Below are positions 33,811-38,465 of a stretch of 64,000 nucleotides of DNA, in pieces. Under the pieces are notes generated by a model. The model was not told the origin of the DNA and searched no databases. It saw only the letters and a program-made list of their open reading frames with translations. A program made the position numbers and the translations under genes. The stretch is from Camelus ferus (lineage: Eukaryota), in contig NC_045696.1 of NCBI RefSeq assembly GCF_009834535.1, forward strand, positions 12,402,001 through 12,466,000, read 5' to 3'. Numbering within the stretch: position 1 is the first letter of the stretch; each line of letters begins with the position of its first letter.

Positions 33811-34669
33811 CACACTACTGGGTAAATATTTTAGACATGCATAGGGTGGATTAAAAATTTGTTCATGAGGTTAGCACCTATAAGTTAAATCAAATCCCTG
33901 AACTAAATAAGATTTAACAGACAAGGGCAAGGACACTTCTCTATTCTTCAAGGACACGTGGCAAAAAAAAAAAATTGCTAGCACAAAGACTGATGATCTT
34001 GTGTGCTTTTTCTCTGATCAGACTTCAAGCACCTTCATTTGCTCCTGTTTATTCCAAGACCAGATAAAAGAGAGATATGTTGCCCTTAATCAGAGAATTG
34101 TATTCTATCCAACGAAGTAATATACTGCTGAGCTTCCCATTAGAATGTTGCTATTGTACCATTTAGCTAAAATTCTTTACATCTGTTGTCCGCCTCTTCC
34201 CTGAGAGATTACTGAAAGGAACAAGCAACTGCCCCCTAGCAGGTGGTGGAAGACAAGGGACTAACAGACATTACTATTCCTATTTTATAAATAAGAAAAC
34301 CAACACTTAATAAGAAAATATTCTGCTCCCACCCTTCGAACTAGTAAATGAAAAGCCAGTATCTAAGCCCAGAAATTACGCCAGTCCTGTGTTCATAACC
34401 GTGCAATATGCTGTCTCCCAAAACTTACTCACTGGCATCAGATGATGATAGTGTTTGAAGAAAGCATTTCAATCTGATTTTTTTTAACTTAAAAAATAAC
34501 TCATGAATAAGCCAAATAATACTCAGTCATATAAAGAAAAAAAAATAATGTTACCTATTTCCACCTTCTTGCTTATAACTCCATTCCCTTGATGTAACTA
34601 ATGTCAACAATGTGGAGTTTATCTTTCCACAGGTTTATCAACATTCATGCAAATATATCCCAAAAAAGC

Positions 34670-36670
34670 ACAGAGGAACAAAACCACAACTGACTGCCAA
34701 ACAACCATTGCTGAAGGGGAAGACTGGAACTTAACAGAAAAGATCTTTTTCAACTGGAAACATAAGAGAGAACCATAGCTGGATGGTAGGAGGGGCATGG
34801 TCACTATATAATCGGGCCCCATACTCCCTGGGTGGGTGACCCACAAGCTAAAGAACAATTAAGTTGCAGAGGTCCTCCCACAGGAGTGAGAGTTCTAAGC
34901 CCCACATCAGGCTCCCCAGCCAGCCCCAGGCTGTGGCATTGGGAAGAGGAGGAGACTCCAGAATATCTGGTTTTGGAGGCCACTGGGGCTTAATTTCAGG
35001 ATCCCCGCAGGACTGGGGGAAACAGAGATTTCATTCTCTTGGGAAGCTTACACAGAATCCCAGGTGTGCCAATTCCAAGGGCAGAGGCAGTGATTTCATA
35101 GAAACCTGGGCCAGACCTGCCTGCTGGTTTTGGAGGATCTCCTGGGAAGGTAGGGCACAGCTGCGGCTCACCCAGGGGACATAAAAGCTATTGGCAAGAA
35201 TTATGGGAGCTTTCATCCACATGAGCTTTCCTGGAGGCTGACGTCTTGATTGGATTATTAGCGCCAAGACTTAGCCCCACCCACCAGCCTGCAGGCTTAA
35301 AGGCTGGGGAGCCTCAGGCCAAGCAGCATACAGAGTGGGAACACAGCTCCATCTTTCAGCAGACTTCCTGAGCCACAAAGGCCTCTAGCCACGGCCCTAC
35401 CTACCAGAGGTCCAGGACCAAGCTTCACCCAGCAGTGGGCAGGCACTGGCTCCTCCTGCCAGGAAACCTGCATAAGCCTCTAGCCCAGCCTCATCCACCA
35501 AGGGGCAGGTATCAGAAATAAGAAAACAACAATCCCAAAGCCTGTGGAAAGAATCCATAAACCCAGGCCAGACTCTACACTGGGACTAGCTGGACACTGG
35601 CCCTTGGGTGACAAAAGAGACGTATACTGCTGGGACTCATAGCATATCTCCCATGGAGCGCCACTTCTCCAAGGTCAAGGAACATAACTAATCTACCTAA
35701 AATACAAATAGAAAGATAGACAATATGAGGCAGCAGAGGAATACCTCCCAGGCCAAGGCACAAGATAAAATCTCAGAAGAAAGAAGTGATGAAGAGATAG
35801 GCAATTTGTCTGAGAAAGAGTTTAAAGTAATGATGACAAAGATGTTCAGAGACCTCAAGAGGAGTATAAGTGCACAGAATGAAGTTTTTAGCAAACAGTT
35901 GGACAATATAAAGAATACCCAAAAAGAGTTTAAGAATAAAGTCACTGAAATGAATAACACACTAGAAGGAAACAAGAATAGACTAAATGAGGCAGAAGAA
36001 CAGATCAGCGAGCTGGAAGACAGATGAGTGGAAATCACAACTGCAGAACAGAAAAAAGCAAAAAAGAGTGAAAAGTAATGAAGATAGTTTAAGAGAAGTC
36101 TGGGACAATATGAAGCACAGTAATATTCACATTATAGGGGTCCCAGAAAGAGAAGAGAGAGAAAGGACCTGAGAAAATTTTTGAAGAGATAATAACTGAA
36201 AACTTTCCTAACTTGGGAAAGGAAACAGTCAGTCACTCAAGTCCAGGAAGTGCAGAGTATCACATTAGGATCAACCCAAGAGGAACACACCAAGGCACAT
36301 AGCAACCAAACTGACAAAAATTAAGGATAAGGAGAAAATACTGAAATTAGCAAGAGAAAAGCAACAAATAACATATAAGGGAACTTCCATATCAGCTGCC
36401 TTTTCAGCAGAAACTCTACAGGCCAGAGAGGAATGGCATGATATATTTAAAGTGATGAAAGGGAGAAACTTACAACCAAGAACACTCTACCCAGCAAGGC
36501 TTTCATTCAGAATTGATGTAGAAATAAAAAGCTTCACAGGTAAACAAAAGCTGAAAGATTTCAGCACCACCAGACCAGCTTTACAAAAAATGTTAAAGGA
36601 CCTTCTCTAGTTATCAAATCGTAAGAAAAGTGAACAAAAAGAAGAAAGAGGGAAAAAAAAGATCTACAAA
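34670..36670 (+). mobile_element. L1 5'UTR plus disrupted ORF1, 3'-truncated
   Basis: GC-rich L1 5'UTR; ORF1 from ATG 35725 (MRQQRNTSQAK...EQISELEDR*) with premature stop at 36025-36027 and frameshifts; ORF1 homology to ~36610. Confidence 0.9.
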
Positions 36671-36973
36671 AGATTGCTTTGGCAATTTGGGATCTTTTAT
36701 GGTTCCATACAAATTTTGGAATTGTTTGTCTAGTTCTGTGAAAATTTCATGAGCATTTTGACAGGGGTTGCATTCTGTCTGTAGATTGCTTTGGGTAGTA
36801 CCAGCATTTTGATAATGTTGATTCTTCCAATCCAAGAGCACAAGATGTCTTTGCGTTTCTTTGTATCATCTTCAATTTCCTTCATCAGCATTTTACAGTT
36901 TTCAGAGTATAGGTAACCTCCTTGGTTAAGTTTATTTCTAGGTTTTGTTTGTTTGTTTGTTTTGATGCAATCG
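36671..36973 (-). mobile_element. Inverted L1 ORF2 internal fragment (post-RT region)
   Basis: Minus translation LYSENCKMLMKEIEDDTKKRKDILCSWIGRINIIKMLVLPKAIYR is L1 ORF2. Confidence 0.9.
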
Positions 36974-37051
36974 AAATGTTTATGCCAGTTATGAAATTCC
37001 GGCTTTTGAAGTGAAAAAAAAATTGAATGAAGGGCCACAAATGGAGAAATA

Positions 37052-37052
<1 letters not shown>

Positions 37053-37098
<46 letters not shown>
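37053..37098. repeat. (CA)n microsatellite
   Basis: Perfect run of ~23 units. Confidence 0.95.
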
Positions 37099-37100
<2 letters not shown>

Positions 37101-37399
37101 GAGTTTAGGATATCATAAATAATCTTTGTACAGACAGAAACTGTAAAATGAACTTAGGTTCTAATCAAAGGATGTCTTTCTCTGTTAACCTAACCTAAAT
37201 CAGCTTCCTCCTTGTTTTATAGTCTATGTTTTCTCAATTTGTATTTTTTAATATTTTGCGTGTCTTACTGTAGTAATAATTGGTCTTACAATTTTTTTAT
37301 ATCTCTTCTGGTCTTCTTAACTAGATTGCAAGCTTTTTAGACACTGAAAGCAGGGAGTACAAATATGACTATTAATGAAAAGCAAACACATTTTACCAA

Positions 37400-38465
37400 C
37401 ACATTCCTCAAAGCATTCCCATTCACACTCCCTCCTTCAAGCCTCAAGGACATTCATGTTATGTGTATCTTTTATACACATGTACATGTCAGGGAAACAC
37501 ACACACCAAGACACACTTCTGATTTTGACACATTTTTTTCTTCCTTTTTCCACCTTAGACAATAGAATTACTTGTGAATTTAAGATCTTCAATTATTGCA
37601 GGTCACTAGTTGACTATTAAAAGCATTCCATAATGAAGGCCACGAAAAAGCAGTAACATTTTAGATTAAAAACTTTACCAATTTCAAGGCACACAGACTC
37701 AATGTCACAAAAATGGTTCCATATTTGACAACCACACAAGTGAAACACTTACATTTCAATCCAGTCTTTGCAAGAATACAATGAATCTGCACAATAAAGT
37801 GTTCTTTTATCTTATTTATGTTAGAAAATAGCACAGAGAGTAAATAAAAGTGATGCAAAACTCTACGTTCAAGGCTCTACAATACATGAGTTTGAGGGAT
37901 ACTGGAAGACACCAAAAACACAGCAACAACAAACAGTAGGACACTGCAGTTTCCAAATTCCAATACTCAGAACAGCCTCTATATGAGTATCAGAAAAGTC
38001 CAAAGTACACATGATGCATCGATGGTCATTGTTTACAAACAGAAATTAGACCAAAGAAAACAAAAACTTACCAGCTGACACCAGCTCAACAAGAATGCTT
38101 AAGATATTAAGTGTAGTTTGAAGATCTTTCATATTCTGAAATAAGTTTTATTATTAAACCACTTTTTTAAAAAGTGCACTGTTAAAAAAACACACAGAGG
38201 AGTTTTTATTCCTATATTTTGTAAAAAATAAGATGCTACTCTTTATATTGGCCATCCTTTCAGGTATTTTTATAGCTATATAATGATACATAGATAGACA
38301 TTTACATGTACATATACATATGGATACATTTATTTTATGCAACTATACCTTATTGCTGGGTTTTCAGGCTGCTTCCAATATTTTGCCACTATCAATGTTA
38401 CAATGAATATTCTTCTATATATCCATATATGCTAGTGTTTGCATAGGATTTAAAAGACAGAAGTG
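37400..38465 (-). mobile_element. Old L1ME-like 3' remnant split in two (~37400-37564 and ~38245-38465) by a foreign insert
   Basis: Left ends TTTTTCCACCTTAGACAATA; right continues TATTGGCCATCCTTTC...TTCAGGCTGCTTCCAATATTTTGCCACTAT...CAATGAATATTCTT, colinear with antisense L1ME 3' sequence as recalled. Confidence 0.45.
38072..38135 (-). pseudogene. AGTPBP1: Isolated copy of an internal AGTPBP1 (CCP1/Nna1) coding exon, 64 nt, splice sites intact
   Basis: Minus strand: cttatttcag|AATATGAAAGATCTTCAAACTACACTTAATATCTTAAGCATTCTTGTTGAGCTGGTGTCAGCTG|gtaagt = [21 protein letters not shown](G). Human AGTPBP1 as recalled reads ..[28 protein letters not shown].. (one difference, T to M). No other AGTPBP1 exon was found by eye. 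Confidence 0.85.

Follow-up and report, generated by a model that had tools for sequence, protein, structure and literature searches.

An AGTPBP1 exon outside its gene

The window analysed here, 64,000 nt of Camelus ferus DNA on contig NC_045696.1 (hereafter C1), carries within some 3.5 kb an L1-derived element, a CA microsatellite and a block copied from the AGTPBP1 gene (Table 1). Inside the block lies a minus-strand exon of 64 nt that reads, from 38135 to 38072, ...ttatttcag/AATATGAAAGATCTTCAAACTACACTTAATATCTTAAGCATTCTTGTTGAGCTGGTGTCAGCTG/gtaagt and translates into 21 residues with one leftover base (G); the ttcag acceptor, the gtaagt donor and the peptide are as the first-pass annotation had described them. 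That annotation had also assigned the peptide to the N-terminal region of AGTPBP1/CCP1, and the identification stands. The product corresponds to residues 76–97 of cytosolic carboxypeptidase 1 (protein P0012, 1227 aa, which carries this name in its sources), and residues 74–97 of P0012 match positions 38141–38070 with a single change, T to M (tblastn against the window, E value 3.3e-6). The exon differs from its parental counterpart at 3 of 64 bases, and these produce that one amino acid change (ACG to ATG), a CpG-type missense that is assigned to the window copy because P0012 has T.

Only two tblastn matches of P0012 to the window fall below E=2, and all the others have E values of at least 2.2. 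The second is a degenerate match around ..VQIHCILAKTGLK.. (37843–37694, E value 0.016), which marks a remnant of the next exon. The neighbouring exons had been reported as missing; this is true of the preceding one, which tblastn did not find, but the following one is partly kept, with about 40 nt and its donor at 37747–37792. The window thus holds one exon and a stump rather than the colinear set of M14 carboxypeptidase exons of a functional AGTPBP1/CCP1 gene.

A Pfam search for a host gene among the 122 stop-to-stop ORFs of at least 75 aa in the window returned a match for one only, the L1 ORF1.

Table 1. Features of the insert and its borders (positions in the window)
Feature	Position	Strand	Basis or remark
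5′ target-site duplication, AAAAAAGCACAGAGG	34662..34676	+	Directly before the L1 start
L1-derived element (5′UTR, ORF1, inverted ORF2 piece)	34677..37053	+	Genomic matches, ORFs, Pfam
L1 ORF1	about 35700–36610	+	ORFs
Inverted ORF2 piece, last 440 bp of the L1 part	36614–37053	inverted	ORFs
(CA)22 microsatellite between L1 part and block	37054..37098	+	Sequence
Copied AGTPBP1 fragment, 1085 bp	37099..38183	+	Parent C4:7849940–7851223; antisense to AGTPBP1 on the L1 strand
Next-exon remnant, last ~40 nt (..VQIHCILAKTGLK) and gtaagt donor	37747..37792	−	blastn/MAFFT, tblastn
Orphan AGTPBP1 exon, 64 nt, intact	38072..38135	−	Acceptor and donor kept
Polyadenylation hexamers AATAAG (38140–38145) and ATTAAA (38153–38158)	38140..38158	+ (L1 strand)	Sequence
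3′ target-site duplication, A7 run then CACACAGAGG	38184..38200	+	Sequence

The parent gene lies on another contig

A genome-wide search with P0012 (itself obtained from a search with the parental next exon) gave 38 matches. Of these, 22 lie on contig C4 (7840949–7942326) and are colinear from residue 11 to residue 1227, and none of the 38 lies on C1. The real AGTPBP1 gene is therefore on C4 and the window copy is an orphan fragment. At the parent locus, the 64-nt exon is followed by an intron of about 400 bp (404 bp) and a 147-nt exon encoding GGGRRASFLVSKGG...AKIGPK. Used as a query, this 147-nt exon returned 242 proteins, and those that are named are almost all called 'cytosolic carboxypeptidase 1' or 'ATP/GTP binding protein 1'.

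The remaining 16 of the 38 matches are to paralogues on contigs C27, C10, C7, C15 and C13. C27:13959270–14191258 holds a multi-exon gene for a paralogous cytosolic carboxypeptidase that is 39–74 % identical to CCP1, while C10:31114021–31118797 and C7:13129635–13135327 hold paralogous carboxypeptidases with one large open exon each (277–292 aa), 45–46 % identical to CCP1 residues 730–1003. A search for AGTPBP1 by way of Pfam PF18027 recovered only the paralogues on C10, C7 and C27. An exhaustive HMMER search also turned up a publicly deposited predicted protein of 77 aa (P0001) that runs through the orthologous or parental exon into the intron and has the appearance of a gene-prediction error made in a different assembly.

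Extent of the copied block

A DNA search of the animal's own genome with 37500–38300 gave a single other match, at C4:7849962–7850826 on the opposite strand (85–89 % identity), so the C4 parent is the only other genomic copy of the block. One parental match in AGTPBP1 had been predicted, and was found; the sharp ends predicted near 37565 and 38244 were not. The parental homology spans 37099–38183, crossing 37565 with small indels only and ending about 60 bp before 38244, and these two positions are thus not the limits of the block. Nor do the halves of an L1ME-like remnant rejoin across 37565 and 38244, as had been supposed, since homology to the parent runs straight through the first of them.

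Identity between block and parent (blastn, MAFFT) is 85.6 % over 700 columns and 89.4 % over 369, corresponding to a Kimura two-parameter (K2P) distance of 0.132 over 1050 columns. The block lacks 231 bp of the parent (C4:7850314–7850544), the gap falling between 37804 and 37805 and removing the end of the intron together with the first ~95 nt of the next exon. We considered whether the gap could be an intron spliced from an RNA; inspection by eye found no GT...AG ends to the deleted segment on either strand. Microhomology of the TGGTG type is present at the deletion, and a microhomology-mediated deletion is the more likely explanation. Introns are retained on both sides of the 64-nt exon, in agreement with the first-pass view that this is not a processed pseudogene, in which they would have been removed.

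Sequencing runs support the block indirectly: 83–91 % of the sampled 31-mers of 36900–38400 occur in 15 DNA runs from four studies and, as the block is 12 % diverged from its parent, these 31-mers are its own.

The neighbouring L1-derived element

Directly 5′ of the block, on the plus strand, lie an L1 5′UTR and ORF1 (34677–36610), with the same polarity as the transcript proposed below. The ORF1 assignment is backed by Pfam matches to Tnp_22_dsRBD (E value 1.5e-24) and Transposase_22 on 36269–36607 (+). Genomic searches (a 16-kb DNA query returned mostly L1 copies) yielded 51 matches to this carrier family at 68–93 % identity, with near-full-length copies at 80–85 %. At least 40 copies fall in this 80–85 % range, many of them on contig C37 (loci L004–L015 and L035–L063). 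Comparison with the 5′ ends of 12 copies places the start of the window L1 about 55 bp inside the 5′ end of the family.

In longer copies of the family, the inverted piece of ORF2 is followed by further inverted ORF2 sequence and then by a normal, sense-oriented L1 3′ end. Among the loci fetched with the inverted ORF2 part of the family, 28 of 29 show the same composite. The carrier is therefore an amplified, ORF2-less derivative of L1 with two non-colinear inverted ORF2 fragments and a sense L1 3′ end. It is reminiscent of the HAL1-type ('half-L1') non-autonomous derivatives: like them, it keeps the 5′UTR, ORF1 and the L1 3′ end without an intact ORF2, and it has nevertheless reached at least 40 copies; it differs in that its middle consists of inverted ORF2 fragments. 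In one family member, L015 (C10:46918662–46923969), an inserted A23 run interrupts the sequence about 40 bp in from the 5′ end, at oriented position ~1450–1500.

The L1 part of the window halts at 37053. Some family copies end early, near the equivalent of 37033–37053, and carry A-rich tails. We examined seven other copies whose match stops near this point: two have long A-rich tails (L029 on C2 and L027 on C17), one has a short A7 run (L024) and four continue. The A-rich tails at this position in other copies indicate that a short form of the element ending there exists, and the window L1 looks like a complete copy of this short form with its tail, followed by flanking sequence.

Outside the insert, the sequence to the left is matched nowhere else in the genome, and a sensitive blastn search of both flanks against all fetched loci gave three weak matches, none of which pairs the two flanks. 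The right flank was also considered as a continuation of the same L1 copy, and similarity of that kind was not found. It contains a ..GHLGCFQ-type motif at 38340–38400. To judge from the L1 consensus, 34380–34661 and 38201–38440 might be adjacent pieces of a single, very old L1 3′ region in antisense orientation.

One target-site duplication around both parts

Directly after the end of the C4 homology stands AAAAAAACACACAGAGG (38184–38200), the counterpart of AAAAAAGCACAGAGG in front of the L1. The duplication is 15–17 nt long, with one mismatch and one 2-nt indel between its copies. The plus-strand order is thus target-site duplication (TSD), L1 (34677–37053), (CA)22, AGTPBP1 block, A7, TSD, and a single duplication encloses L1, microsatellite and block as one 3.5-kb unit. 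A TSD and poly(A) had been reported as absent, which holds at the limits then assumed for the block (37565 and 38244) but not at the true limits with the L1 included, where there are the 15–17-nt TSD and an A7 run.

We assessed the duplication against random segments of the window. The full TSD score was reached by 3 of 19,871 random pairs of 22-mers, but it was common (3644 of 19,463) when both segments were required to contain an A6 run, because the A-runs then align with each other. The test was therefore restricted to the 11 nt that follow the A-runs. Here, the 5′ TSD and 38191–38201 agree at nine consecutive positions; among 200,000 pairs of post-A-run 11-mers drawn at random from the window, 50 scored as high.

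The inferred nick site is TTTTTT/G (bottom strand ...GCTTTTTT/GGG at the 5′ TSD), a TTTT/G variant of the L1 endonuclease consensus 5′-TTTT/A. At its other end, the block stops 25 nt past the ATTAAA hexamer and 38 nt past AATAAG, at which position the parent has AATAAA. The tail of the block is at most the A7 run, which is inseparable from the A-run of the TSD and may represent a poly(A) remnant, the start of the TSD or both.

The block is bordered by CA repeats, with (CA)22 to its left and CACACAG to its right, where the right TSD begins CACACA. The presence of (CA)22 in place of a poly(A) tract, together with this CACACA, makes insertion into a pre-existing microsatellite conceivable. The (CA)22 probably derives from the tail of the source element, from the parental ...AAAAAAACATAC... 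motif or from both. Just outside the homology boundary the parent carries TTAAAAAAACATACTTC, an L1-type target whose ACATAC could have seeded the (CA)n. In the carrier family a GGTGAGT stands 14 nt past 37053, and at the boundary the parent reads ...CTTCAG; the junction itself is masked by (CA)22, and a spliced junction between L1 and flank is unlikely.

Age and fate of the insert

The branch leading to the window L1 was obtained from pairwise distances among this copy and 12 family copies, with a star phylogeny assumed and no consensus built. It measures 0.090 by K2P and 0.025 by transversions. The block differs from its parent by 0.132 (K2P), or by 0.048 in transversions, that is, 0.024 per lineage. 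By transversions, then, the L1 part and the block are equally old (0.025 versus 0.024). With a mammalian rate of 2.2e-9 per site per year, the K2P distance of 0.132 dates the insertion to about 30 Myr ago.

Over roughly this time the AGTPBP1 copy has been decaying neutrally, with one exon truncated and the other bearing a missense change, and the analysis gave no sign of use or function for the copied exon. Of the sampled words of 36900–38400, 43 % and 28 % are present in transcriptome contigs of two runs (X16 and X19, respectively). The region is thus represented in RNA libraries, and this could be merely intronic RNA. Since a good acceptor and a consensus gtaagt donor are still in place, it is conceivable that splicing at the new locus joins the exon to a transcript, be it that of a minus-strand host gene or an RNA started by the neighbouring L1. 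We consider this quite improbable; if true, it would be exon shuffling caught in use and not a dead copy. The suggestion that the fragment is raw material for exon shuffling is sound in principle only.

Origin of the insert

The block sits between the L1 tail and the 3′ TSD of that same L1, in the same polarity and with its end close to a polyadenylation hexamer, an architecture that points to L1. We conclude that the unit arose by a single L1-mediated retrotransposition that is best described as an L1 3′ transduction, a reading to which we assign a probability of roughly 0.55. A 3′ transduction is defined as L1 followed by read-through flank in PMC9311842, which summarises the mechanism and has Moran et al. 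1999, Goodier et al. 2000 and Pickeral et al. 2000 among its references. The hallmarks of L1-mediated insertion given in PMC5110952 are a TSD, a cryptic poly(A) signal 10–30 nt upstream and a TTTT/A target.

Under this reading, a non-autonomous L1 derivative with a 5′UTR, ORF1 and scrambled ORF2 remnants would once have stood in an AGTPBP1 intron, antisense to the gene and downstream of the exon for residues 97–145. Transcription from its 5′UTR would have run past the weak L1 end into the flank, reading, all in antisense, the intron, the next exon, the 404-bp intron and the 64-nt exon, and the transcript would have been polyadenylated some 25–30 nt past the AATAAA/ATTAAA just beyond that exon. 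Reverse transcription by L1 proteins at the TTTTTT/G nick on C1 would then have produced the 3.5-kb insert (34677–38183) within its 15-nt target-site duplication, with about 55 nt lost at the 5′ end and the 231-bp internal deletion arising during or after the event. Anatomy, parent locus, TSD, hexamers and the equal age of the two parts are established by the data, whereas the RNA intermediate, a former source L1 and an origin of (CA)22 from its tail are parts of a reconstruction and should be read as probable steps.

The weak point of the reconstruction is the source. No element of the carrier family is found at the homology boundary or within C4:7830001–7890000, where the only matches are two ORF1-like stretches of 70–75 % identity, 21 kb distant and in the wrong orientation. 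For a strict 3′ transduction one must therefore assume a source that was never fixed or has been lost. Its absence is what would be expected if it was never fixed, but it leaves membership in the strict class unproven.

A parent locus free of L1 is explained directly if the insert is instead an L1 chimera with no source L1 in AGTPBP1. Here, reverse transcription would have been primed on a polyadenylated antisense or intronic AGTPBP1 RNA and, at the 5′ end of this RNA, would have passed by a jump (or through ligation or trans-splicing) onto the 3′ end of a short-form L1 RNA, which was then copied almost to its own 5′ end. The final structure, the TSD and the hexamer positions would be the same, and short-form L1 ends with tails do exist. 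Template switching, ligation and trans-splicing are the routes to chimeras described in bioRxiv 10.1101/2025.02.02.635956, in which 15 of 17 mRNA/L1 chimeras involve gene loci without an intronic L1. In the chimeras described there, however, the non-L1 RNA lies 5′ of a 3′ L1 segment. The non-L1 part here lies 3′ of the L1, which is the arrangement of a transduction, and a chimera would also require a separate, hypothetical antisense AGTPBP1 RNA whose first nucleotide coincides with the homology boundary. We regard this origin as possible though unlikely. Transduction and chimera are both single L1-mediated events, and an event of this kind is the most likely source of the insert.

The two parts might also have arrived separately, the L1 first with its own TSD, its tail turning into (CA)n, and the block later as a patch of AGTPBP1 DNA or pre-mRNA at a double-strand break in or beside the microsatellite. 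This amounts to the class 2 templated insertion favoured by the first-pass annotation, which had seen a capture of unspliced AGTPBP1 sequence into an unrelated locus. The capture of an unspliced fragment and the unrelated locus stand (C1, not C4), but the templated patch at a break does not fit the borders: the patch would have to fall exactly between the L1 tail and the 3′ TSD of the L1, match the L1 in polarity, end by chance 25 nt past an ATTAAA on the L1 strand and share the transversion age of the L1. The CA repeats on either side of the block ((CA)22 and CACACAG), the lack of a long poly(A) and the TGGTG-type microhomology at the 231-bp internal deletion are what such a patch might leave, and class 2 insertions are documented in PMC5110952; even so, two steps seem improbable to us. 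A segmental duplication at the DNA level, or an assembly error, that happened to fall beside an unrelated L1 would retain introns and splice sites, as any genomic DNA copy does. It would have to account for a copy of just 1.1 kb that is 12 % diverged, and so cannot consist of misplaced C4 reads, for most block words being present in the 15 DNA runs of four studies and for L1 and block lying together inside one TSD. Alignment of the two loci found no C4 homology beyond the L1 or the TSD, and we consider either event very improbable.

Comparison with known systems

L1 3′ transduction can move exons in cell culture and is the standard proposal for retrotransposon-driven exon shuffling. The mechanism is already established, and the window copy is a probable new example of it that carries no evidence of exon use. 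Clear instances from nature of a whole exon carried to a different chromosome together with its two splice sites are useful illustrations, and this one is well defined, with an identifiable parent, cargo, carrier, TSD and signal. It also presents a non-autonomous, ORF2-less L1 derivative in the role of carrier. For annotation, 38072–38135 is best marked as a pseudo-exon that does not belong to AGTPBP1.

The insert resembles L1 3′ transductions in that its L1 precedes, on the same strand, unique DNA copied from a different chromosome, with one TSD around both, in that it ends soon after a downstream polyadenylation hexamer and in that its cargo includes an exon with its splice sites. It departs from them in several respects: the parent locus has no source L1, the carrier is rearranged, lacks ORF2 and ends at an internal 'short-form' site, the place expected for the tail of the source is occupied by (CA)22, the poly(A) is nearly gone and the exon is antisense to the L1.

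Two classes of templated insertion polymorphism are distinguished by Onozawa and Aplan 2016 (PMC5110952). With class 1 the insert shares an unspliced intronic or antisense fragment at a distant site, a TSD, a cryptic poly(A) signal 10–30 nt before the end and a TTTT/A-like target; as described there, class 1 consists of non-L1 RNA alone, whereas here the fragment is fused behind 2.4 kb of L1 within the same TSD. Class 2 insertions, or patches at double-strand breaks, offer a likeness in the templated copy of distant unspliced sequence and the microhomology at the internal deletion. As characterised in the same text, they have no TSD, poly(A) signal or poly(A) tract; the present insert has a TSD and a signal once the L1 is counted as part of it. 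In place of the NHEJ-type junctions without TSD or signal that typify class 2, its true limits show both.

L1 chimeras, according to bioRxiv 10.1101/2025.02.02.635956, combine L1 and a cellular RNA within one TSD in a single target-primed reverse transcription (TPRT) event, often with a partner locus that has no L1, and in these respects they are close to the present case. The cellular RNA in the chimeras of that text lies 5′ of a 3′ L1 segment and is mostly exonic or small-RNA sequence. The cellular part of the camel insert, in contrast, is 3′ of the L1, unspliced and antisense to its gene.
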